From assembly GCA_002269645.1 (NCBI GenBank), contig NIVC01000578.1, positions 200,549 to 264,548 on the forward strand: a DNA stretch of 64,000 nucleotides, given 5' to 3'. Numbering within the stretch: position 1 is the first letter of the stretch; every line of letters begins with the position of its first letter. The notes beneath the pieces are model-generated. The model had not been told where the DNA came from, did not search any database, and was given only the letters and a program-made list of their open reading frames with translations. A program made the position numbers and the translations under genes. This document shows, piece after piece, positions 1,732 through 29,924 of this stretch. The stretch comes from Macrostomum lignano (taxonomy: Eukaryota).

Positions 1732-2430
1732 AAATGTACTCGTAGATGTAGTAGACCCGGCGGCCGCCCCCTTTGCCATGGCTGGACTTGCATATAAGGG
1801 GGGTAAATTTTGAGCTTACTTTGGCTTTTTAGACCAAAACAAAAATTTGGGAAAATCTGCCCCCACTACTTTAAAAATCCTGAATTGACCACCAAATCGG
1901 ACTCATCTAAATGAAAACTTAAGAATACAAGCAACATTGTACATGCGCTAGTGCTTAAGTAGTGGAGTATTAAAAAATATATTTTTTGTTGCGTTGATTT
2001 CGAAGATCAAAAGGTATTACTTATAAGTAGGTAGGCTAAAACGCACACTTTTGCGTTCACATCCAATTTCTGAAGTGTATGAAACTCAGAAAAATTTGCA
2101 CGAGTCGCCTATACCCCACTTTGGAGCTTGCAGCAATTTTTCAAAGAGATGGCTGCTCAAAGGGTTAAAAGTTCAAGTTAGCTGTAGTATGAGGATTGGT
2201 CAATGCAAATAAATAATGAGCTCATTATACAAGAAAATAATTAATAAGGATATCAATAGTTCGCCCCACTGTCCACTGCACGTACTGAAAGGCGTACTGT
2301 CAGGTTCGAGCACAAAAACACCCGAAACTAAAAAAATCAACTTTAAAAATTCTGCTCTTTACATAATTTCCTCACAAAAATATTTCATACGTACAAAGAA
2401 GAAAACCTACAAACTTTTATCTTGCGGGAT

Positions 2431-2480
2431 GGGGCGTACCCTTGAGGGCCGCCGGGGCGCCGGCCTAGAGGGTACGCCCC
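2431..2480. other. GC-rich stem-loop
   Basis: GGGGCGTACCCT (2431-2442) pairs perfectly with AGGGTACGCCCC (2469-2480). Inner stem GGCCG/CGGCC (2447-2451/2461-2465). Flanks are AT-rich. Confidence 0.8.
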
Positions 2481-2510
2481 AATTTTTCTAACCACTGGGT
2501 ATAGCTATAC

Positions 2511-3345
2511 AAAGTCGAATTAGCAGACATCGAATTAAAAGAGTTAATGTCGAAACTACCATGACTTTTAAAAAATTAGAAAAAAGACTTTTTCTTTCTA
2601 ATGGATTTCGACATTACACAGGATCTTACTGGTGTCTTTAACAAATACGAAGCAATAGAGACGCTAATTTCTATCCTCTCGAACGAACACAAAATTATAG
2701 ACAACGATAATAGTGTTGGTAAAGATGTCTTACATGGTGTTATGTCAACTGTCGAATTAAAATTTACAAAAAATTCGTCTGCCAACTAACGTCGGGTGGT
2801 GTAACAAAGACTCTTGGGAATAACATTTACACTTTGGTTTATTGTCCAGATAAACGACTAAGACAAACATTTATAAATCCTCTTGCAAAAAATAATGGAA
2901 TTACGCGATTAGAAGCCACAATATACAACTATAATTTTATGGACAGCGATACCGTTTACAATCCATTAGAAGATGCGGAGCAGCTATTATTAAAACAGAA
3001 AGAATACCTAAATTATATAAGATTCTATTCGGAACCATTTACCACAATGTGGAGCAAAATAGCTAACGAGATTATAAATTCGTGCATTGTTATATCGCAA
3101 GACTTTTGCAGATTGCATATTATGGAAATTCGCTAACAAAAAAGATAATTGGAGCACAGATTAATATTGCAAACAGAACAGAAGACGAAAAAGAGAGATT
3201 ATTAAATTATGCAATAGCAGCCTTTGGATTTAATATGCTACCAATTAATGTTATTCGCATCGAGCCAAATTCGACAAATAAATCTCTTTTTAATTGTACA
3301 CACAGAACATTCTTAAAAGATGGAAAAAAGATGGTTTTTTGGTTT
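2511..3345 (+). pseudogene. Decayed AT-rich ORF, possibly a Rep_trans-like (non-HUH) initiator/nickase of mobile or viral origin
   Basis: ORFs 2601, 2834 and 3082 join through two 1-nt frameshifts (~2727, ~3110) into MDFDITQD...DNDNSVGKD/CLTWCYVNCRIKIYKKFVCQLTSGGV...NGITRLEATIYNY...QIAYYGNSLTKKIIGAQIN. Stops lie upstream of 2601. The function is inferred from motif order. Confidence 0.5.
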
Positions 3346-3621
3346 TTTCGGTTTTTTGGCGGCCTAAGGCCTCTGACCGGCACCCGGTTCTGTCGCCTGT
3401 TTTGCCTCGCCGTCCACCGTGCCGGGCTGGCAGACCGGTCTCTGTCTCCTCACAGCCTTCGACGCGGCGGCGCCTTGCTGGCGTTCCGCGCCGGTGTGCC
3501 GCTGCCGGTCGTCAAGGCCCTGGGCGACTGGCGGAGCTCGGCGGTTGAGGTGTACCTGGGACTGGAGAAGGGCTTCGATCTCCAGCTGGCGGCTGCTCGC
3601 AAACTGTCTCAATGCCTGTAG
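3346..3621 (+). mobile_element. Tyrosine recombinase C-terminal fragment (DIRS/Ngaro- or Crypton-like)
   Basis: SPHSLRRGGA (HxxR), LGDWRS (W) and EVYL (catalytic Y) are the typical C-terminal motifs of eukaryotic YR elements. GC content rises abruptly at ~3350. A T-rich region with short repeats follows to ~4040. Confidence 0.85.
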
Positions 3622-4764
3622 TTTTCCTTTTTAGCTTAATCCTGGAAGCAGCTAGTTTATTGTCTGCTCTCCTCTTTGCTGGCGTGAACTCAAATGCACA
3701 GATTTTTGTTTTTTCTCAACTCGTGCGTCCCCTGTTTTCTTCCTTTTATCTTTTTTCGCTTGCTTGCAATGATGACTGCTGTTTTATTGACCGAGTACTG
3801 TTTTTATGGCTTTCTATTTTACTCTTTCTACGATTTTACTCTTTCTACGATTTTACTCTTTATACGATTTGCAAGCGTATCCGAACCACCCTGCGCGCCC
3901 CCTCGTCTTCATTATCCTTTCTCATCTTTCTTTCGGATTTTGGACCGTCGTGTCTATTCGCACTGTCACGCTACTCGTTTTCGCAAACGCTCGAGTCCGC
4001 CTTCCTTTCCTTGGGGTGTGGTGCTTAAACAAATTTAAAGGGCAGATAAATTACGGATAATTTTACTGATATTGACTACGCTGCTTAAATATAGTAAACA
4101 AATTAATAATCATTAATAAATGCCTGAAATTAGAATGTTAATGAGTTAAGAGAAATATCTGAAAAGATCGCGATATTTGGATTTGCGATTTATAGAATGT
4201 TCGATCAATACAGTAACAGGAAATTTCTGCAATGAATGAAGGTCACTACACCTTGCTTGTTCTCTCCTATCCCAGGTCCAATTTTTTTTCGCTTTTTTGC
4301 CAAATCCAGCTTCCTGGTGTCACTGTGAGCAGAATGACGTATCATTTGTGTACATAGGTTACTCGGGCTCCACTTTATGAGCTTAAGTTGACAGGCCCTT
4401 TCAGCCGGCTGAACTTTCTAATTTTCACTTGTTTCACTTGTTCAATTAAGCGTGGGAAGCACAATGAACTCCTGCTGAACTGGTCTTGCTGTCCTGGGCT
4501 GATCGGCTGATTGTAGTGCGTACTGCTGAGATCGTTGATGATTCTGCTGCTGATGGTGCGAGCCGAGCTACGTTGGGTGTCTTAGACAAAGGTTAGCGTC
4601 CGCAACGTTGGGGCCTGCTTCATAACTTTGGTCCCCTCGCTCCAGGCTCACATTAGGTCCTCTCGTTACCGTCCAGCTTCGGCCAGTTGACTCGACCAGG
4701 TGACACGACCAGGTGCCCTAGCCTATCCCCGTTACTCAACTTATGAGCATTTTCTTCTGGCTCA

Positions 4765-6957: not shown

Positions 6958-7564
6958 TGGCGCCCGACTGAATTGAACCCGTTCACTACACTGCTTCTGC
7001 TTGTGACCCTTCGTTCGGCTCGTTTACTCTATCGTCTCGCATCGTATCGATTTTGTTACCTCTGCGTTCGTCTGCTCGTCTTCGTCGAATCTGCCTTCGT
7101 TACCTCTGCGTTCGTCTGCTCGTCTTCGTCGAATCTGCCTTCGTTACCTCTGCGTTCGTCTGCTCGTCTTCGTCGTCGTCTTTGCTTCTCATCGTGCTCA
7201 AGGCTTCAGACTCTGTGCTCACTCCGGATTCAGGACTCAGGACGGACGAACTGGACAGCTGCCTGGAGAAGTCGACTCGTCTGCCAGCTAAGTTTTCATT
7301 TGGACTGTTTTCAGTTAGCTGTCTGACTTTCCACTCATTTATACTCCTTTCTATTCCTTGCGTGTTGTTTGTTTCACTGCTTTTGCTATCAGTCACGTAG
7401 TCGTAGATTTTCACTTTGCAATTTTATTCACATTTTCCTAATTCAGTAAAATTTTCGCTTGATTTGGGTGTGCACTGAGGTTACTTGTGGGTCCTATTGC
7501 GCTCCTCTCTGAACTCTCTCACTGCTAGCTGCTTGGTTGCTGCTCGTTGCTGCTCGAGGTCGTT

Positions 7565-10500
7565 ATGTCTGCGGAGGTCAAGAAGAGAGCTCTGATTAGA
7601 GCAGCTGTCACTCGGACTATCGCGAAGGCAGACAAGCTCTTGTCGCTTAGTTGGTGGAATGCCGAAGCCGTTGCTGATGCTGAGGCGTGCTTAGAGGTTC
7701 TCAAGGAGAAGCTGGAGGCGTTAAAAGGTGCAGATGAGGTGATTCAGGAAGATCTCTCTGAAGATAAGATGGAATCTGAGTTGGCTGAGAGCTATGACTA
7801 CTCGTTTCGCTGCCGCAAGTTCATTAAATTGCTGGAAAATTCCCAAAGTTCAAACGTGGCGCATCAACAGCCTTCAGGCTCCGCTCAACCTCAGGTGAAG
7901 CTACCTAGGTGTCAGCTACCGACCTTTGATGGGACAGTTACGGGTTGGCAGACCTTTTGGGATCAGTTTTCGTCATCTGTGGACTCAAATTCATCGCTCG
8001 CTGATATCGACAAATTCAATTACTTGCTCGCTTCTCTCTCTGACTCCGCCAAGGCTGGCATTCGGGGTCTGGCAGTGACTGGTGCGAATTACGCGGCTGC
8101 GATCACAATTCTGCGAGATCGGTTTGGCAAGCCAGATTTGATAGTCAGAGACCTCATGCATCAGCTGTCAGAGCTTAGGCTAAGTGACACCTCGCTTTCA
8201 AGCCTTCAGCGTTTTCATGACGATGTGTCTGCTGCCGTGCGCAGCCTTGAAGCTCAGAATGTGCAAGCTGCCTCGTATGAGACATTGTTGCTGCCAAACC
8301 TACTCAAGCGGTGCCCAGATGAATTTAGGTTGGACATGCTCAAGTCAGCCGCTTATTCAGGATCACAGTGCGATTCAGTTAAGGACTTTTTACACCTCTT
8401 AAGCCGGGAAATTGAGGTTCGTGAGAAGGCTGTTTTGATTGGCAAGAAGACTGGACACGATCGCGAGCGGTCTGGAGGCTCGCCGAAGCCTTCACTTTCA
8501 ACTCTGACAGTTCAATCTAGCTCGAATAGCACACCAAAGGAACATGGCAAAATCTTCTGCACTTACTGCAAGGCTGGACACAAGTCTGAAGATTGTCTTC
8601 AATTTGCAACAGCGGATAGACGTCGCGAGTTTTTGCACCAGGAAAAACGTTGCTTTCGGTGCTTGCGCACAGGTCATGGTGCTCGCACGTGCAATGATCC
8701 GCGGCAGTGCAGATTCTGTGACGGCGCACATCACGTGAGCATTTGCAACAAGGTTCCAGCAAAAACTGTCATCACTAGGCCTGCCGGTCTAGCTAAGTCT
8801 AATAAACCTGCCGGAAAGCAACTTGGAAGACAGGCAAGGTCAAATAATCAGTGCTTACCTACGACTGCAGTTTCCGCTGAGTCCTCGCCACTCGATCATT
8901 CGGCTCAAGCTCCGTCTGATAATTCGAACGCGCGGGCCGATGCTGGCAGCTCAGTCACCGTCTGTGCTACTCATGAAGAGCCGGCACCGGTCGCTTCACC
9001 GAATCACGTCTCTGATCATTTTTCTTCGACCATGTTCCTTAGCAGCAATCCTTCAGTGGCCCTTCCTGTTGCCAAAGCTATACTGTTGAGTGCTGATGGT
9101 CAGCGAGAGCTCCTGATTAGGGTGTTGCTCGATACAGCTAGCAACAGATCCTACATCAGAAAGGATGTATGCGATCTCTTAGGCATCACGGCAACCAGGA
9201 GTGAGCCATTGACTGTGTCGACATTCACTGGTCTCAATACAACAATCGAATCCGGTACTGTCACTTTCTCAATCAGGAAAATAGATTCGCGTCAAGTTTT
9301 GAACATCCGTGCTAATATGGTCAATGATATCTGTCAGCCTCAGCGCTCAGTCTTAGTGAACCAGTTTCCGCATCTGCGCAATTTAGACTTAGCAGCTCCG
9401 CATGACTCACGCGATGAGAGCACGCCAATTTCTGTTCTGATCGGGGCCGATCAATATTATGATATCGTCGGCGGAGAAGTGGTTCGTGGATCATCTGGAC
9501 CGTCAGCTGTGTCGTCAAAGTTGGGTTTCGTCCTTTGCGGGCCAGTCAAGTTGACTGAGGACTCCGGCAGTCCCGCGAACAATTCAGCAGCTGACGGGCC
9601 AAGTGAAGCTTCTCAAGTTCTCTGCTGTACAGTTGCAGACCCACTGACTGTCACTTCTGACTGTGACTTGTCCCGATTCTGGCGCTTAGAAGCTATTGGT
9701 ATCTCAGAAGTTCAGTGTCAGTCCTCGATCGATGAATTCGTTTGCGACCCGCAGCTAATCAACGGACGCTACGAAGTCAAGCTTCCTTGGAAGCATCCAG
9801 ATAGCTCACTCGTGCTACGCAATCATTTTGATCTCGCATACAAGCGTCTGGACACGACTATGCGCGCTCTCTCGCGCCAACCGGATACGTTCGAGAAAGC
9901 ATTTGCGATCATCCGTGAGCAGGAAGCTACAGGTGTCATTGAGAAAGTGCCGGATGCCGACCTACAGCAAGATACTAACTGTCATTATCTTCCTCATAGC
10001 TGTGTTGTGAAAGCTGACAGTGAGCACACAAAACTGCGTATTGTCTTTGACGGTTCTGCACGAACTTTCAGGGAAGATTATTCAATCAACGATCATCTAC
10101 AAGTCGGTCCGACGGATTTTCCTCGCATTCCCGAGATTCTCCTGCGCTTTCGTCGTAACCCTATTGCTATTCTTGGTGACATTGAGAAAGCATTTCTCCA
10201 AATTTCTGTTCACGCTGGCGATCGCGATATGCTGCGTTTTTTGTGGCCCGATTTGTCGGACGAAAGACAAATATGTCATTATCGATTTTGCCGTCTACCA
10301 TTCGGTTTGACTTGTTCGCCAGGTGTGCTCCGAGCTACCATCCTGCGCCATCTGGACACGTTTGAGTCTGCTTTTCCGGAATGTGTCGGTATCGTTCGGA
10401 AAGACCTTTACGTCGATAATCTCGTAACCAGTTGTAGTTCGGACACAGAAGCTCTAGCTCTGTACCATGACGCTAAAAAATTGTTCGATCTGGCTGGTAT

Positions 10501-13018
10501 GAATATGCGTCAGTGGATGACGAATTCTGCCTCCTTCAACGCGCATCTTCCGGAGCAAGATGTGGGTCACGCCAAAAAAGTCCTTGGGCTCGTCTGGTGT
10601 TCGAGTAATGACGTCATTCGTATGGATTTCCGTGACTTGGCTTGCGTGCACAGTGAGCATTGTCCAACTAAGCGCTCAGTACTAAGTAAGCTGGCATCAG
10701 TGTACGATCCGCTTGGACTAGTGTCTCCAGCCGTAATCTCTGCCAAGATATTGCTTCAACAGTTGTGTGTCAGAAAAATCGACTGGGATGAGCCTCTCCC
10801 ACCTGACATCTCCCAGGCTTGGCACTCCTGGCAGCAATCGTGGGATGGTTGCATCTTCGAGTTTCCTCGTTATTTCCTCCGCACGCTTGGTGCCAAGCCA
10901 ACAAACATTCAACTGCACGGCTTCTGTGATGCTAGTGAGTCAGCTTTTGCTGCTTGCATCTACGCGCGTGTTGCATCTGACGATGGCGCCGTCGACACCG
11001 TGCTCCTCATGGCTAAGTCTCGCGTTGCGCCGCTGCTGAATCTATCCATTGCTCGCTTGGAACTGCTAGGAGCCTTAATACTATCGCGCCTTATGCACCT
11101 GGTCTCACAACAATTCCCAGGCGCGGAGCGTTTCCTTTGGACTGACAGTTTAACGACACTCTGCTGGATCACTAACATAGAAAAGCTTCGCAAGGTGTTT
11201 GTTCAGAATCGGGTCCGAGAAATTCGTAGCTTAACCTCTATTTCTGAATGGCGACATGTGCCAGGAGAGAATAATCCTGCCGACATTCCATCTAGAGGCT
11301 GTCGACCAGAGAGTCTGCAGTCCAACACCCTCTGGATGCACGGCCCAGATTTTTTGCGTTCAGGAGACTTTCCGTCATCTCTAACTCCGTTTCCTCAACC
11401 GGTTGCCGAAGAGTCCACGTCTCAGTCTGGTACAGTGCTCCTTGCCTCTGTGGCTGCAGCCACGTTCCCTGATCGTGAGTCTGTTTTGGATTCCCCAACA
11501 TCGGACGTTTCTTCGATTATTGATGTCGAGCGTTTCTCTAGTTTTAACAAGTTACTTCGCGTCACAGCTTGGGTCAGGCGTTTCGTTCTGAATTTAAAGG
11601 CCTCGTTGGCGCGGTCACCGCTACAAAAATTCAATTTTGTGACCGCAGCAGAGCTGCACACGTGTGAAACACTCTGGCTCCGTTCTGCTCAACGTTCTGG
11701 ATTCTCGAAAGAAATCGATCACCTCTCGAAACACTCGACAGCTACTCCGCTGTGCAGGGATCTAAATCTGGTTCTCGACGACGAAGGTTTGCTTCGATCG
11801 AAAGGACGAATCGGTGAAGCCTTTCCCTATGAGACCAATTATCCAATTCTAATTCCTCGTCATTCTCACCTGGAGCAGCTCCTCATCAGGAGAGCTCATC
11901 AGTCAGTCGCGCACGGGGGAGTCGCTCCCACGCTCTGCAAGATTCGAGAGAAGTTTTGGGTACTCAAAGGTAGACAGCGAGTGAAGCAGGAGTTGTCTCG
12001 GTGTGTTGTATGTCGGAAGATTCAAGGGCGTACGTACACCGTGCCGGTCGTTTCCCAGTTACCGAACTTTCGTTTGGCGGATCTTCGCCCCTTTCAGACT
12101 GTTGGTCTCGACTATTTTGGTCCGATTTTGTATCGGACGGGGGAGAGTGACGTCTCGACTAGTGAGCCTGCAAAAGGGTACGTGTTGCTCTTCACATGCT
12201 CGACCACTCGAGCAGTGCATTTGGAGCTGCTATCAGATATGTCAACTCGACAATTTCTTCACGGCTTGCGACGCTTTGTGGCGCGTCGTGGACTTCCTTC
12301 GTTGATCAGCGACAACGCAAAAACCTTCCGTTCAGCAGCTCGAATCCTCGGTGCCAGCACTAGCGATCAGGTGCAGGCGTTCTGTGCTGAAAGGAGAATT
12401 ACCTGGCAGTTCATACCGGAAAGGGCCCCATGGTGGGGCGGATTCTGGGAGCGGTTAGTTGGAGTCATTAAGGGCTCTTTGAAGAAAAGCATCGGCCGTG
12501 CTCAGTTAAACTTTGATCAGTTGTCGTCTACAATCATCGAAATCGAAGCTATCATCAACAGTAGGCCATTGTTGTACGTCTCTGCCGATGACCGGAGTGA
12601 AGTTATTACTCCTTCACACTTTCTACTTGGAGTGCGACTCACTTGGGAACCTGATCAAGGTGCGACTCAGTCGTCAACGCTGCTGTCACTACCTAGACGA
12701 CTCGATCTTCTGCGCAACGCTCTGAATCGTTTCTGGAAGGTTTGGCAAGAGGACTACGTCACCGCTCTCCGCGAGAAGCCATTGCATGGGCAAGGATGTG
12801 GTCCCTTTCCGAAACCTGGTGACGTTGTGGTGGTGTGCGGTGAATCACACCAGCCGAGGCTGATGTGGAAGCTCGGTGTTGTTGAGTCGGTTTCTGTTGG
12901 TCGTGATGGTGTCAGTCGCTCTGCTCTGGTTCGTGTAGTTAGCGGTGTGGGAGCTAGGAGGAGGGAGCGCATTAGGCGCCCGGTGCGAGCCTTGGTGCCA
13001 CTCGAAGTCTCTGAGTAA
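7565..13018 (+). CDS. BEL/Pao Gag-Pol polyprotein (~1817 aa from the ATG at 7565)
   Basis: DUF1759-like gag (LPTFDG..W..FWDQF), three Cys/His knuckles, protease LLDTAS, RT YVDN, RNase H FCDAS, integrase H-H-C-C + DYFGP + SDNA + WWGGFWE, and a C-terminal DUF5641-like region. Uninterrupted. Confidence 0.96.
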   Translation: MSAEVKKRALIRAAVTRTIAKADKLLSLSWWNAEAVADAEACLEVLKEKLEALKGADEVIQEDLSEDKMESELAESYDYSFRCRKFIKLLENSQSSNVAHQQPSGSAQPQVKLPRCQLPTFDGTVTGWQTFWDQFSSSVDSNSSLADIDKFNYLLASLSDSAKAGIRGLAVTGANYAAAITILRDRFGKPDLIVRDLMHQLSELRLSDTSLSSLQRFHDDVSAAVRSLEAQNVQAASYETLLLPNLLKRCPDEFRLDMLKSAAYSGSQCDSVKDFLHLLSREIEVREKAVLIGKKTGHDRERSGGSPKPSLSTLTVQSSSNSTPKEHGKIFCTYCKAGHKSEDCLQFATADRRREFLHQEKRCFRCLRTGHGARTCNDPRQCRFCDGAHHVSICNKVPAKTVITRPAGLAKSNKPAGKQLGRQARSNNQCLPTTAVSAESSPLDHSAQAPSDNSNARADAGSSVTVCATHEEPAPVASPNHVSDHFSSTMFLSSNPSVALPVAKAILLSADGQRELLIRVLLDTASNRSYIRKDVCDLLGITATRSEPLTVSTFTGLNTTIESGTVTFSIRKIDSRQVLNIRANMVNDICQPQRSVLVNQFPHLRNLDLAAPHDSRDESTPISVLIGADQYYDIVGGEVVRGSSGPSAVSSKLGFVLCGPVKLTEDSGSPANNSAADGPSEASQVLCCTVADPLTVTSDCDLSRFWRLEAIGISEVQCQSSIDEFVCDPQLINGRYEVKLPWKHPDSSLVLRNHFDLAYKRLDTTMRALSRQPDTFEKAFAIIREQEATGVIEKVPDADLQQDTNCHYLPHSCVVKADSEHTKLRIVFDGSARTFREDYSINDHLQVGPTDFPRIPEILLRFRRNPIAILGDIEKAFLQISVHAGDRDMLRFLWPDLSDERQICHYRFCRLPFGLTCSPGVLRATILRHLDTFESAFPECVGIVRKDLYVDNLVTSCSSDTEALALYHDAKKLFDLAGMNMRQWMTNSASFNAHLPEQDVGHAKKVLGLVWCSSNDVIRMDFRDLACVHSEHCPTKRSVLSKLASVYDPLGLVSPAVISAKILLQQLCVRKIDWDEPLPPDISQAWHSWQQSWDGCIFEFPRYFLRTLGAKPTNIQLHGFCDASESAFAACIYARVASDDGAVDTVLLMAKSRVAPLLNLSIARLELLGALILSRLMHLVSQQFPGAERFLWTDSLTTLCWITNIEKLRKVFVQNRVREIRSLTSISEWRHVPGENNPADIPSRGCRPESLQSNTLWMHGPDFLRSGDFPSSLTPFPQPVAEESTSQSGTVLLASVAAATFPDRESVLDSPTSDVSSIIDVERFSSFNKLLRVTAWVRRFVLNLKASLARSPLQKFNFVTAAELHTCETLWLRSAQRSGFSKEIDHLSKHSTATPLCRDLNLVLDDEGLLRSKGRIGEAFPYETNYPILIPRHSHLEQLLIRRAHQSVAHGGVAPTLCKIREKFWVLKGRQRVKQELSRCVVCRKIQGRTYTVPVVSQLPNFRLADLRPFQTVGLDYFGPILYRTGESDVSTSEPAKGYVLLFTCSTTRAVHLELLSDMSTRQFLHGLRRFVARRGLPSLISDNAKTFRSAARILGASTSDQVQAFCAERRITWQFIPERAPWWGGFWERLVGVIKGSLKKSIGRAQLNFDQLSSTIIEIEAIINSRPLLYVSADDRSEVITPSHFLLGVRLTWEPDQGATQSSTLLSLPRRLDLLRNALNRFWKVWQEDYVTALREKPLHGQGCGPFPKPGDVVVVCGESHQPRLMWKLGVVESVSVGRDGVSRSALVRVVSGVGARRRERIRRPVRALVPLEVSE

Positions 13019-23070: not shown

Positions 23071-25905
23071 ATGCAGCCCTCAGGACGCAACCGGCGGCAG
23101 TATATGCAGCAGCGAAGGTTCGAGCAGAAGCTAAAAGCTGCCATAAGTAAGGGTCAGCCGTCGCTTTCCCACTCCCCAATTCAACGCGATTCTGCAACTC
23201 TGCAGACCCACGAGCCGAAACCCTCTGGCAGCGTTAATCGTACGGCAGGTATGTACTGTTCATCGAATACATCACATGGCTGCAACGAGAGAAAGTGTTA
23301 CTTTTTACTACTTCTTTCAATTCCTTATACCTTCTCGGGACAGGCGATGGCATTGTCGCGGCAGCCAGCGCCAGCGTCGACGAAGCCGACAGCGACACTG
23401 ACAGCTACGCCAGCAGTGGCGCGGCGCCCCAGGGCAGCGGCGACGAAGCCGACAGCGACACTGACAGCTACGCCAGTGGTGCTGCGCCCCAGGGCAGCGG
23501 CGACGAAGCCAACAGCGACACTGACAGCTACGCCAGTGGTGCTGCGCCCCAGGGCAGCGGCGACCAGGCCGACATCGACGCCAGCGGCGCTGCGTCCCAG
23601 GGCAGCGGCGACGAGGCCAACAGCGACGCCAGCGGCGCTGTGCCGCCAAACTTCGACCTCTTCCAGCACCCATAACACGATGGGGTACTGGCTGAGCCCA
23701 TATACTCCATAGCGCCTGCCATTTGTGAGGTCAATGACTGCGCTATTGACCTGCAGATTCCCCGTGAAAAAGTCGGCCGGCTTTTGGCTACCATCCACCG
23801 CCTCGTCCCCGGCAACAGGTTGCCGCGGACGGCGAAGACGTTGTGGCGGAATATGAAAAAGGCCCAAAGTTGCATCGGCTCCTCAAAGTGCATGACTGTG
23901 TGCAATTCCTGTCGATGTAACTATCCAGGAGACAGCAGCCAGAATGAAGGACTTTGTCGGAACTGCAATTCTCAACTTGTCTCAAATTTCTGGGTGTTCG
24001 ATATCCGTCAGCAAATTAGGACTTACATCGAGGCCTGTGGATTGCTGCAGAATGTCACCTTTCCCGTGGACTTCCAACAACCGGAGGATTGCATTCACTT
24101 CTCAACCAGCCAAATGTATGCCGAGTTTATTGAGGCGATTGAACCCCAGGATCGAATGGACTTGTCCTACACCCTGAGCTCGGATGGCTTCTCGCTGCAT
24201 ACTACCAGCCGAGTTGAAGTCTGCCCCGTGTACATCAGCATCAACGAAGTCCACGACCGCTTCAAACTGAAGTATGTCGTCATTTGTGGTGTATGGGCGG
24301 GAAAGAAGAAATTGCACGCGTCTGCCTTCCTTCCTTGTCTCATCGGCGCGTTGAATAACCTGCGCACGCGAGGCGTCACCTACTTAGACGACGAATCTGT
24401 GCGACGGACAATCCGGTTTCATCCGCTTCAGACCCTCTTCGACGCACCCGCTCGGGCCGACGCTCTTAATATGAGGCACTGTACGGCCACTTACGGTTGC
24501 GACAAGTGCTACATTGCCACACGTCTGCACCCATCCGGCAGTGGTCGCTACTACGACGTGGAGATTACTCCCGCAATGCTGAACGAAGCCGCCCGTCTCG
24601 GTTGTGTGCAGACCGTCGTACGCAGCATGACCGACACGTCTCATCTTGCTGAACTGCATCTGCAACGGATACCTTCTGATCCGAACGGCGACGTCCTTGG
24701 AGTCCGCGGTCATTCTCCCCTTGGCGAAATTCTCGGATTTTACTTCGTTCGAGGCTGTCCGCCGTGTTACCTGCATCAGCTCAACGTCGGCCTATGCAAA
24801 ATGAAGATGCTGCAGTTTTTTTCTGTTCGGCGCGACAAGCCTGACCGTGGCTCAGTGTCCGGATTTACACGCGAGGCAGTACCAAGTAGACGCCCGACTG
24901 CGGAATCTTTACGTGCCCGATTGCGTGCAGCGGCATTCCGTTCGTCCGCTCAGTGACCTACGCAATATGCGCGGTCACGAGTTTGAAATGTGGCTCCTCG
25001 CTTACGGGCCACTCGTTCTTGACGGAATTCTACCAAAGGCCCATATGGACCACTTCAAGGTCCTCTCTTCCGCTGTATTTTGGATGACGGCTGACTATGC
25101 GCCCAAAACCGAATTGCGACACGTGGAAATTTCCCTGCGGCATTACCACGCGAACTTGCAGCGTCTGTTTTCGCTACGGGCTCTCACCTACAATGCACAT
25201 CAGGTGTGCTGCCACATGCTGGCCTATGTGCACCTCGCTGGATCCGCGCATCGCCTATCGACTGGCCTCTTTGAAACCATGCACAACCGTTTGGCACAAC
25301 GTCTTCATGGGACCCGCCGCAGCGATGTCGAATTGGTGAATGCTGTTGAGCGCCAGATCGGCAGCATCCAAGCGAGAGCACGACTCCTAGGCCGGCAAGT
25401 TCCACGGCAGCAGGATGAGCGGGACCTGCGCCGCTTTGAGATCCACACCGTCGGGGGCGCTGTCCTTCGCAGGCCGAAGTCTCAACAAGTTGGCTGGCAA
25501 ACCGTCTCGCTGCTGTCTGGCTGGAAAGTCAGCGCGTATCGGCCTGCAGGCGCCAGGAGAGACGCGGCCTGCTTTGCGGCTGTCGCCGACCAAACGTCCC
25601 CAACAGAGTTCCGATTCTGTCGGGTAGCCTCCATCGACGTGGAAGGTGACATCGTCGTGCTGAAGATCATCGTGCTGCCCCTGATGCAACCCGAGCCGGA
25701 CCCACTGGAGTCGCTGGCCCAAGTTCCTGCAGCCTCGGTAAATCGTGGCTGCCGCTTCGTCCACGTTAGGCGACTGGGCTGTGACCCATTCGGTGACCTA
25801 CGCATTGAACCGGTCGCCGTGCGACTCGAGGCGCTTCGTGGGGTCTGCGGTCTGCATGGCCGCAAAATTGCCTTGTTGCCCCATCCGCAATTGTGCTTCG
25901 CGTGA
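23071..25905 (+). pseudogene. CACTA-type transposase (~910 aa reconstructed), one premature stop and one frameshift
   Basis: Predicted exon 23071-23248, GT-AG intron 23249-23343, exon 23344-25905. TAA at 23673 and a +1 shift in the T7 run at ~24816-24822. Motifs LSSDG, PVYISINE, FDAPARA, YGCDKC, YLHQLNVG, GHEFEMWLL, YNAHQVCCH, FETMH. Confidence 0.85.
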
Positions 25906-27044
25906 ACATTAACTGCTTCGATGCTTCGTTTGTAACTTCTGTTTCAATACATGTCCGTTTATTTATATTATGCTACGCTAGGTAAGCATAAGCAATTCAA
26001 TAAGACAGGGAATTAACTCGTGTAGAACATATTCTGCTTGTTTTGCTGTATTATATTATGTATGCGTGCCGTACTAATAATAATAAAATTTATCAAAAAA
26101 GACACTAATTTTGGTTGTACACTATTGCGTTGACTTCAATTATTAATGTAAATTTATCAAACATGGGTCTAATTGTAGGAGCATTAAAACTTATGGCAGA
26201 AGTTTTTGTTGAAATTTGTTATAAAAACTCAATCGGATGCTTTCGTAAAAATCAGGTGCTAGAAAAATCGTACTCAAAGCCATTTTGATCCCAGCGAGTA
26301 AGGCTACTCGTAAGTGAAAGTTGAAGATCTTAGTAGACTGTTTAAATAACGGCATTTACATTTATGGCTGTGTATAGATACAATGTGTAAGACCTGTCTG
26401 GGAAGCAAATGTAGTTTGATGGCTTGCTTAATTAAGGGTTATTTTTAAACGACGACCAAACGTAGTTTGAGCCCCTATTAAAATTGATGAGCGCCGAAAT
26501 CCACACGCCTCACGCCTTTGCAGCTGCATGGCAACTGGGCATTCTGGGCATTTCCCGTCATGGGCGGCCGGACGAAGCGATACCCAGTCCATGCCTCTAG
26601 CAGATCTTCGATCCTGCATCCAAGAAGCCGAACAACGAGGCGTGCGCGTGTACACGAGTACTCGTAGTCTGCTACTCTTCGTGGAGGCACTGAACGTGAT
26701 CGACTCAGGTTGGCTGGCTACAAGGCACTGTTTCCGACGAGACCTCATCAATTAATGCTTTAATTAACGCGCCGGCCTGCCGGACGTTTCCAGATATTCA
26801 AAAAGGAGCGACATTTCTTCTTGAGAGCCCAACACTTTTCAATGTCGACTCCGATTTGCACGGTCGCTACTCGTTGTCTATCGCACCAGGGCAGATTCGG
26901 CGCGTATATCCACGCCCAGTGGTGGGTAATTCATTTATGTTCCGGTTTGCTTCCATCAATGCGTCGTTTCAGTCAGTCAAATCACTTCAGTCAAACTCGC
27001 GGCACTTATTAGTTTATTTATTTATTCGCACGCACGCCAATATT

Positions 27045-27368
27045 ATGGTCTGCACCGTCACATACTTACCACTGCAGGAAGCCACGTTCGTGAGCTATTA
27101 CGGACCCGAGTCGAGCAGCTACCGTGACTACACGATCGTGTCCACAGAGGAACTTCCGACTAGTCGTCGACCATGTCAACTCGGTTCGCCACCACCATCC
27201 AAAACGCCTGACAACGGGTCCCAAGAAAGCACCGAATGGAACATGTTTGACACCCAGTCTGAGTCCCAGTCTGCGCTGGAGGTGCCGGCATCTGCAGTCT
27301 TGGAGTGCGTCTGCGGCCAAGGCAATTTCCTCGGCTGCACTTGGTGCAGGCGACATGCTAAGAAGTAG
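27045..27368 (+). CDS. Small ORF inside the CACTA element with a C-terminal CxC...CxxC cluster, function unknown
   Basis: ATG at 27045 after an AT-rich stretch. GC-richer coding-like composition. Ends ECVCGQGNFLGCTWCRRHAKK. Confidence 0.35.
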   Translation: MVCTVTYLPLQEATFVSYYGPESSSYRDYTIVSTEELPTSRRPCQLGSPPPSKTPDNGSQESTEWNMFDTQSESQSALEVPASAVLECVCGQGNFLGCTWCRRHAKK

Positions 27369-27943
27369 AAAGTTTTACAGTAGAAACTATTTGGCGGTCT
27401 ATTATATCCTAACGTATAGTTTGGTTGCCGAATTGCATTTTCTGCATTGCAGTTCTTCTGTCAAGTTGTGGCTTACCCTGATAATTATTAAAGCTGACAT
27501 CATTATTGAGAGAACTGCTGAGTTCTCTATTCGTGAAAATAATTGTGTCTATTTTTCTTTGCTTTTAATACTGTTTTAAGTTTCCATAGAAAGGCTTATG
27601 CGCTCCTCTCCTCTCCTCTCTCCTGTCTCCTATATCCTCTCGATCCTCTCTCCTATCCTCTCTCCCTAGCTCTCCTCTCTTCTCCTCTCCGCCATCCGCC
27701 ATCCGTTACGGACAGTTCGCTTTCGTATTCAATTCAGTTGCATTAAGTCAGTTAAGTCAGCCACAGAAATTTTTACAGAATGTACATCACAAAACGTTTC
27801 CCGCAGCACAACTGCATCGTTATGGGCCACTTAAGTAAATCCAAAGAAAAAAATAAAAAACAAAGTGAAAAAAACGAAGCGAAAAGTCTAATTCGAAACG
27901 GACAACGCAGGCCACCGTCACCAAAAGGCGAAAACTGGAAGCG

Positions 27944-28358
27944 GCTGCTGGTTCCGCTGCTGCTTCGACAGAGCCGCCGACCTCGGCTCTACTGTACGTG
28001 CTGCTGGTTCCGCTGCTGCTTCGACAGAGCCGCCGACCTCGGGCTCTACTGTACGTGCTGCTGGTTCCGCTGCTGCTTCGACAGAGCCGCCGACCTCGGG
28101 CTCTACTGTACGTGCTGCTGGTTCCGCTGCTGCTTCGACAGAGCCGCCGACCTCGGGCTCTACTGTACGTGCTGCTGGTTCCGCTGCTGCTTCGACAGAG
28201 CCGCCGACCTCGGGCTCTACTGTACGTGCTGCTGGTTCCGCTGCTGCTTCGACAGAGCCGCCGACCTCGGGCTCTACTGTACGTGCTGCTGGTTCCGCTG
28301 CTGCTTCGACAGAGCCGCCGACCTCGGGCTCTACTGTACGTGCTGCTGGTTCCGCTAC
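27944..28358. repeat. 57-bp tandem repeat, ~7 copies
   Basis: Unit CTACTGTACGTGCTGCTGGTTCCGCTGCTGCTTCGACAGAGCCGCCGACCTCGGGCT. The frame STVRAAGSAAASTEPPTSG runs in frame into ORF 28369. Confidence 0.95.
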
Positions 28359-28368
28359 TTCTGCATAC

Positions 28369-29924
28369 TTGCAGTACGACTGCGTGCCGTACAAAACAGA
28401 GGGTACGAGGAGATTCTTTTTATTCAAATATTCCAACTATCACGAGAAAACCGATGTGGTCTCCACGGACGACATTGTCGGCCGCAAACGCGATTCGTCA
28501 ATACCCGTCGCTGTGGGCAGCGAAGTTCTTATAATCAAGGCTAAAGTCAATAGAACTGCGGCCAAAAAGTGGCATGGCACCCTGGTGCAGGGGCCATTCA
28601 CAGAAAGGAATGCAGCCGCACGTGCAGCTTCGTTAACTAATGTTCACACCACGAGTGTCGAGCTGCCAAGGACTTGTGGCTCCTGCCGCAGCTTTTCTGT
28701 CGAAGTCCAGCGCCAGTTGGCGCCAATAGAAACTTTACGTGAGTAAATTTTTACGTTTTTAGGCATACATACACCCTAAGCCAGGATCCTCAACAGGACA
28801 ATTCCCGCATATTTATAGGGGGACAGCTAAAATCGGCGACTCAGAAGGAGACCCAGCTGCGCGAAGATAATCAGTCGCTGACGGAGCAGCTTTGCGTATC
28901 CAGCAGAATGGAAAAAAGTCTGCTGCGCCAGTTGGAGGCAGAGCAGCGGCGCAGCACTAGATTGGTAGAAGCTGCGCAGCGCAGCAACTCGCTGCTTCTC
29001 AAATCGTCGGACATCCTCTGCCACGCCACGTCCGGCCGGGTAAAGTCCGGTACCAGTCAGTCCCTGACTGATCGGGAAACTTCTGAGTCAAGCATGCAGA
29101 GGGGAGGAGCCGTTGGTGCAGCGGCGTGTGCCCATCAACAAGACGAAGATGAGGCCGATGAGGTCGATGAGGATCTCAGTTTCACATGCGAACAGAATCT
29201 GTCTGTTGCACAGACTCGTGCGCTGCTGACTGCAAGCCAGAAGGCAGCAAACTGTTCGGAGACCTCGTCCTCGTCCGGCTACGTGTCGCTCTCAGAGACG
29301 CAGCCGTTCGTCAAGGTGCAATTTCAGCGGCGCGCGGATCTTCAAAGGCGACTGGAAGAATTCGGAAAGGTGCCAGCCCCGTCCGATGCGGAGCACGCAG
29401 ATGTCACGTTCATTCGTGCAACGGCCCTGCAGGCCCTCCTCCGCGCTCTGCTGCGCACTATGTTCACGGACGAACAATTTGCTAGTTCTAGCATATCGGG
29501 TCGCAACTCAGAGGTGGCAAACCCAGGAAAGATGGCTGCGGTGAGAGTCTGGCTGGCCGAGAACAAAATTAGCTACACGCAAGCCAATCTAAACAGGGCG
29601 TTCAATCGTTGCAGTGATACGGCTAAAGACCACCTCGGCATCTCGGGTATCAAAAAGCGTGCAGCTATGTCCGTCCCAATGCGGTCCAAGAAGCCCGGTA
29701 CAGGTGCCGCTGCAACGAAGCGCTCAAAGAAGGCCGCCCAGAGCAGTGAGAGCACAGTTGTTGTCATCGTGGACGATCCCAGTAGCGCCAACCAGAACAT
29801 CTATCCGTCTGCTTCGAATGCTACAGTTGCCAGTTCGGCCGATGCGAGCGCCGGCAGTTCGACAGCCAATTCCGGCAGTAGCGGCACTGTCGATATGCTG
29901 CAGGAACTGTATTCGAATGATTGA
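28369..29924 (+). CDS. CACTA accessory gene: coiled coil + BEN/DUF4806-like domain (5' end uncertain)
   Basis: An exon to 28738, a phase-1 GT-AG intron 28739-28818 and exon 28819-29924 join in frame. LLRALLRTMFTDEQFASSSISG...NPGKMAAVRVWL resembles the BEN-domain helices. Confidence 0.65.

Follow-up and report, generated by a model that had tools for sequence, protein, structure and literature searches.

A decayed Rep_trans-like gene in Macrostomum lignano and its intact relative in an element with Maverick ends

We analysed a 64,000-nt stretch of the Macrostomum lignano genome, positions 200,549 to 264,548 of contig NIVC01000578.1 (C578 below); this whole stretch is termed the window, and coordinates refer to it unless a contig or locus is named. 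On its plus strand, at 2497..3328, lies the 3' piece of a dead gene whose product resembles the Rep_trans rolling-circle initiators, matching approximately residues 375–648 of an intact 1004-codon relative in the same genome. A first-pass annotation had placed the gene at 2511..3345; homology to the intact relative instead spans ~2497 to ~3328. The three motifs it named are all found on the plus strand: DITQD (2610..2624), predicted counterpart of the RepDE metal-ligand motif D142-x-A-x-D146; RIKIYKK (2753..2773), predicted counterpart of R189-x-Y191-x-K193 with the catalytic tyrosine; and GITRLE (2897..2914), predicted counterpart of R212-x-E214, again with a metal ligand. At the tyrosine the window copy reads Y-K-K, and 104 of 107 aligned family rows read Y-N-K. 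Two 1-nt frameshifts had also been proposed, and comparison with the intact copy locates them near 2725 (2720..2730, plus strand) and near 3104 (3099..3109, plus strand), but the account of the damage was incomplete, since two codons on the same strand (2562 and 2577, within 2562..2579) are in-frame stops. The AT-richness claimed for the gene is real (GC 0.32, against 0.58 for a long exon-like open reading frame, or ORF, of the window and 0.51 for its long terminal repeat (LTR)-type ORF); it is not distinctive by itself, because other 1-kb bins of the window are equally AT-rich. The match is not due to chance, given the intact relative in the same genome together with the 18 database homologues and 343 representatives described below.

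The search of the host genome for intact copies that had been suggested was successful. DNA matches numbered three, the window itself and two inverted copies, 72% identical, on contig C1500. These two are the arms (7,394 and 7,279 bp) of a 15,501-bp palindrome, C1500:203,854-219,354, with a spacer of ~830 bp; the ends could be defined, and are flanked by a 6-bp target duplication. Each arm contains an AT-rich end, an array of ~100 copies of a 19-bp unit, a 227-codon ORF, the 1004-codon ORF, and small ORFs on the opposite strand. The 227-codon ORF is similar to the N-terminus of the 1004-codon ORF, and an ORF in the spacer to its C-terminus. A frame break in the right arm was considered as a real lesion and rejected as a likely assembly error, since it is missing from contigs of all four sequencing runs. 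Depths per contig in two DNA-like runs were higher for arm than for spacer (~92–136 versus 47, and 11–13 versus 7–8), which fits a real duplication of the arms. Between the window copy and the C1500 copy, compared over 348 codons, nonsynonymous divergence (dN) is 0.18 and synonymous divergence (dS) ~1.7; the ratio, ~0.10, points to two lineages long under purifying selection, one of them now dead.

Two runs that we guess to be RNA cover parts of the C1500 element and give no evidence either way on expression. One low-depth contig of such a run carries six clustered A>G differences (L006:3616-3658); these may reflect editing of an RNA duplex formed by the two inverted arms, or an error or strain difference. 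As a separate observation, the 227-codon ORF of the element holds in frame a GC-rich palindromic insert of ~34–45 bp (L005:6794-6827). One Maverick family carries such an insert in its ATPase gene (C326:107,971-108,004), likewise in frame, and its sister family does not; similar short inserts occur in polymerase genes, and the insert may be a tiny mobile element.

The upstream half of the dead gene, corresponding to about residues 51–374 of the intact relative, lies outside the window at C578 ~191,990-192,770 and includes the first catalytic Asp, in an FCD motif. An inserted block of ~10.3 kb split the gene and separates the two pieces. Its CAGTGG terminus starts where the 5' piece stops, and the window piece resumes just past its CCACTG terminus, which forms the left boundary of the piece (2426..2497, no strand assigned) and is itself outside the element; we take these termini to be those of a hAT-like miniature inverted-repeat transposable element (MITE). 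The right boundary is likewise foreign, being the 3' end (3358..4000, plus strand) of a repeated GC-rich retroelement, presumably DIRS/Ngaro-like, with a tyrosine recombinase and an overlapping reverse transcriptase-like ORF; this retroelement has ~30 long matches in the genome among 36 candidates scored. The recombinase fragment at 3358-3621 was thus ruled out as part of the element. Preceding the 5' piece is a tandem array with a 21–22-bp unit, and before the array comes a decayed terminal arm of the Maverick type: ~450 bp upstream of that piece the DNA matches, in diverged form, the inner arm of the Maverick end hairpin, with a score of 86, the best of 836 windows scanned and reached by none of 1000 shuffles. 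Since hairpin-arm match and then array precede the dead 5' piece, the C578 and C1500 loci share one layout of end, array and gene.

The ends of the C1500 element are those of Mavericks (also called Polintons) resident in the same genome. Its first 125–128 bp match at least 38 other genomic places at 98–100% identity, a count taken from the 40 candidates scored of 211, and all 28 end matches inspected begin at AGTAGTAT, with differing flanks. Five interiors were read, of seven fetched, and contain ORFs for an integrase, polymerase motifs, an ATPase and a capsid-like protein. Pfam supported only rve and Pox_A32 in these interiors; the names PolB, capsid and protease are assigned from motifs. A complete Maverick, C326:102,324-120,579, has these same ends and a 6-bp duplication, and each Maverick end folds into an imperfect hairpin of ~260 nt. 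We had considered a MITE or Helentron-like identity for the common termini, and rejected it once the interiors proved to be Mavericks. The 6-bp length lies in the 5–8 bp range given for Maverick/Polinton target duplications (10.1101/2023.08.22.554363). Maverick ends and a 6-bp duplication make a Maverick integrase, rather than the Rep-like protein, the most likely agent of the element's insertion.

The gene content of the element is nonetheless not that of a Maverick. When it was compared with 73 Maverick ORFs, none of the Maverick core genes (PolB, rve integrase, ATPase, protease, capsid) was found; the sole match was a small accessory gene that both tested Maverick families carry (63–78% at the amino acid level, ~36% for a paralogue). 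Its ORFs gave no helicase match either, and no further long ORF is present. Conversely, the Rep-like protein had no match in any of 18 Maverick stretches. The element has Maverick ends, yet is no Maverick. Two observations concern the Mavericks themselves. At L054:1470-1510 the outer flank of a Maverick end is that end's own inner tail in reverse complement, which suggests inversion or fold-back at the terminal hairpin. Two close families (C4485 and C581 versus C326) have the same gene order with clearly different polymerase-motif genes, which suggests polymerase replacement.

A search with the core of the Rep-like protein found 18 database homologues at 31–48% identity, including named genes in Schistocerca, Planococcus, Cacopsylla and Aphis, and 343 representatives at E<=0.001. 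From these, 107 rows were chosen for core coverage, with near-duplicates removed, and aligned. The motif order D ... DxxxD ... (R/K)xYxK ... RxE, whose DxxxD, YxK and RxE the first-pass annotation had recognized as the order of Rep_trans initiators, is near-invariant: Y244, K246 and G288 are present in all 107 rows, E293, R291, K242 and D196 in 106, D192 and N245 in 104, and D55 in 99, with D, D, Y, K and E jointly present in 96. The catalytic tyrosine thus sits in an (R/K)xYxK context (Y and K+2 in 107 rows, K-2 in 106), where a strand ends and a helix follows. No HUH motif shows among the conserved columns, and the top 30 of these hold no His. The Y-to-E spacing is indeed longer than in RepD, at 46–52 residues in every row with both residues, against 23 in RepDE; in the intact relative, D-to-Y is 52 and Y-to-E 49 aa. 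In six Schistocerca species (P0012, P0027-P0031) one homologue is annotated as a gene and conserved at >90% identity; it may be a domesticated copy.

RepDE holds its metal with D46, D142 and E214 and has Y191 as nucleophile (PMC4797284); R140, D146, R189, K193 and R212 are conserved besides (PMC4797284, PMC13107129). All of these have an ordered counterpart in the family except R140: two residues before the D142 counterpart there is an Arg in 1 of 107 rows and an Asp in 75. The metal ligands correspond to D55 (99/107), D192 (104/107) and E293 (106/107), a match made by motif and strand register, not by residue-level superposition; the starts of the aligned ranges put D55 within one residue of D46/D9, assuming no gap. 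Structure prediction gave, in a 301-residue model, a confident TBP-like saddle, a crescent beta-sheet, for the catalytic domain, and its best matches among solved structures include RepDE and RepSTK1; RepD and RepSTK1 had been proposed for the comparison. TBP itself was first or tied in both structural-aligner runs, and viral early transcription factor subunits were among the best matches in predicted structures.

Sequence searches gave no formal tie to Rep_trans. Pfam had no informative match for the intact protein, the window pieces, 58 homologues or the distant loci, PF02486 and PF05144 included, and none for the accessory ORFs, where the one DUF816 row was weak and fell short of the cut-off. 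Similarly uninformative were sequence searches of the PDB, run with one protein and with three profiles, and tblastn of phage records. HHalign of two family alignments against pT181 RepC alone was not significant. Scanning IMG/VR found nothing with close and distant family profiles and no informative match with RepC, and the PF05144 profile found nothing in the M. lignano genome. The predicted fold is similar, D, Y and E are conserved in intact homologues, and no confident match to an unrelated family emerged. Of the proposal that the locus is a relic of a eukaryotic element using a Rep_trans fold, the mobile-element origin, the motifs and the predicted saddle stand; formal Rep_trans membership and rolling-circle replication stay putative. 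The protein is like a Rep_trans initiator in its predicted working, yet no formal member, and is quite probably a DNA-nicking enzyme.

Family members occur in other DNA as well, and we compared 13 metagenome loci. L019 (1-5694), 5.7 kb long, is bounded by terminal inverted repeats of 127 nt, which may be a k-mer effect of assembly; the only genes of this contig, convergent, encode the Rep-like protein and a D5-type primase-helicase, and it is a candidate autonomous linear replicon. Terminal inverted repeats of 435 nt, 98% identical, bound the 9.5-kb contig L022, and L023 and L024 terminate in hairpins. The Rep-like gene lies between 81-bp direct repeats within a large gene-dense contig in L026, and adjoins a DDE transposase in L025. 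The eight loci besides L019, L022, L023, L024 and L026 are short or show no such ends. Prokaryote genomes yielded one locus among 95 candidates, on a contig of 3.6 kb that has an identical counterpart among metagenome contigs and is probably mis-binned; we suspect the same of a homologue labelled Baumannia. The named insect homologues are chromosomal and lack the ~200-aa N-terminal extension.

Among known systems, the predicted TBP-like curved sheet, the near-invariant motif order and the lack of an HUH motif in conserved columns are shared with RepC/RepD/RepDE and RepSTK1 (PF02486; PDB 4cwc, 4cwe, 4cij), Phage_CRI (PF05144) and the archaeal Rep-Arvir. Unlike these, the family shows no similarity at the level of profile HMMs, has no R140 equivalent and has a Y-to-E spacer about twice as long; its proteins are of 500–1000 aa, with extra N- and C-terminal domains, and are found in eukaryote genomes, whereas the Rep_trans fold has been described as restricted to bacterial, and now also archaeal, elements (PMC13107129, 2026). 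Host Mavericks share with the element a near-identical terminal 125 bp, the 6-bp target duplication, AT-rich DNA, a similar size range and one small ORF (two paralogues); they differ in their core genes, and those examined lack gene-containing arms of 7.3–7.4 kb and the Rep-like gene. Helitrons and Replitrons are, like the element, eukaryotic and thought to use a tyrosine nickase. Replitrons reportedly have HUH enzymes, and Helitrons are not known to have long inverted arms or target duplications. The enzymes of Helitrons are of the HUH type, of another fold (PMC13107129). Transpovirons and Tlr1 are similarly bounded by inverted repeats and tied to larger DNA viruses or polintons, and transpovirons are capsid-less (PMC5499653); an SF1 helicase, not seen in the element, is encoded by both, and Tlr1 additionally has genes for a capsid protein, an ATPase and an integrase, which the element likewise lacks. 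The text available for them describes no protein of the Rep_trans fold, nor is one mentioned for these elements in the available parts of PMC11253617, 10.64898/2026.10.13.758929, PMC6431247, PMC5499653 and 10.1101/2023.08.22.554363. Our literature search found no eukaryotic Rep_trans-like element and no such Maverick satellite, though Repbase, most subscription journals and bioRxiv supplements may hold one. The gene likely marks an undescribed hitch-hiking mobile element.

On balance we favour the reading that the stretch at 2497..3328 is a copy, now decayed, of the principal gene of an element with Maverick ends and without capsid or polymerase; by a similarly slight preference, it would come from an older lineage of this type, and would later have been interrupted by insertions and have lost its 3' end. 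We lean, too, towards the element being a Maverick-dependent satellite, with its own predicted Rep_trans-fold tyrosine nickase starting DNA amplification; here nicking, origin and helper dependence are all things we infer. Three acidic residues would coordinate a divalent metal ion, and one strand would be nicked by the invariant Tyr in or close to the terminal hairpin or the 19-bp array, leaving a 5'-phosphotyrosine link as RepD does. The 3'-OH could then serve a host polymerase for rolling-circle or rolling-hairpin copying, with the displaced strand bound by the C-terminal beta-rich domains. Fold-back copying may have made the palindrome, and the linear product would be inserted by a Maverick rve integrase acting in trans.

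The main rival, which we consider unlikely, is that the nickase gene is a self-mobile cassette which came into a Maverick end, either as a small rolling-circle transposon or as an end-invading module; with as little probability, the palindrome on C1500 would then be a defective Maverick derivative carrying the gene as cargo, and there would be no stable satellite lineage. Mobile replication modules that invade the ends of polinton-like viruses have been proposed (PMC11296320, section 9), and the settings of distant relatives are unrelated to one another (direct repeats in L026, a DDE transposase in L025, a D5 helicase in L019); the chromosomal location of the named insect homologues, and their lack of the N-terminal extension, also speak for it. 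Against this, our searches of the M. lignano genome found no copy away from Maverick-type ends and none in the 18 Maverick stretches, and two copies as diverged as dS ~1.7 are each preceded by a tandem array and, before it, a Maverick-type end. With the old end itself diverged, long co-residence fits better than two chance insertions. Two other explanations are less likely still. The nickase might act as a weapon of the homing or anti-Maverick type, cutting helper DNA instead of initiating replication, which we judge quite improbable: nuclease conflict at such ends has been discussed (PMC11296320), and the element, which encodes neither helicase nor polymerase, could be copied entirely by a Maverick polymerase from the common ends, but in PMC4797284 and PMC13107129 all characterised enzymes of this fold are initiators or relaxases, and one relative is paired with a D5 helicase on a contig bounded by inverted repeats. 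Very improbable, to our minds, is a non-catalytic, viral-type TBP-like DNA-binding or transcription factor with convergent likeness to the Rep_trans motifs, although the ranking of TBP, the viral early transcription factor matches and the lack of a sequence-level tie to Rep_trans all speak for it.

Other features of the window are a perfect tandem array of ~40 copies of a 16-bp unit (1047-1689); an uninterrupted LTR-retrotransposon ORF of 1829 codons (7529-13018), which we take to be BEL/Pao-like; and transposase-like ORFs with companions resembling a large DNA transposon (23676-29924), presumably CACTA-like.

Taken more broadly, and more tentatively than the satellite reading, the family may define a new class of linear replicons, ended by inverted repeats or hairpins and using a Rep_trans-fold tyrosine nickase, across animals and other eukaryotes; its animal members would be Maverick satellites that borrow the ends of their helpers for integration and perhaps packaging. 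If this is true, a second, non-HUH family of rolling-circle initiators enters eukaryotes, and Mavericks gain a parasite of their own. A conserved and catalytically intact-looking eukaryote family would complete the three domains of life for the Rep_trans fold, and would add a nickase fold absent from current transposon classifications. The link to Maverick ends gives concrete candidate substrates in the terminal hairpin and the 19-bp array, and suggests the existence of satellites of Mavericks in animals.
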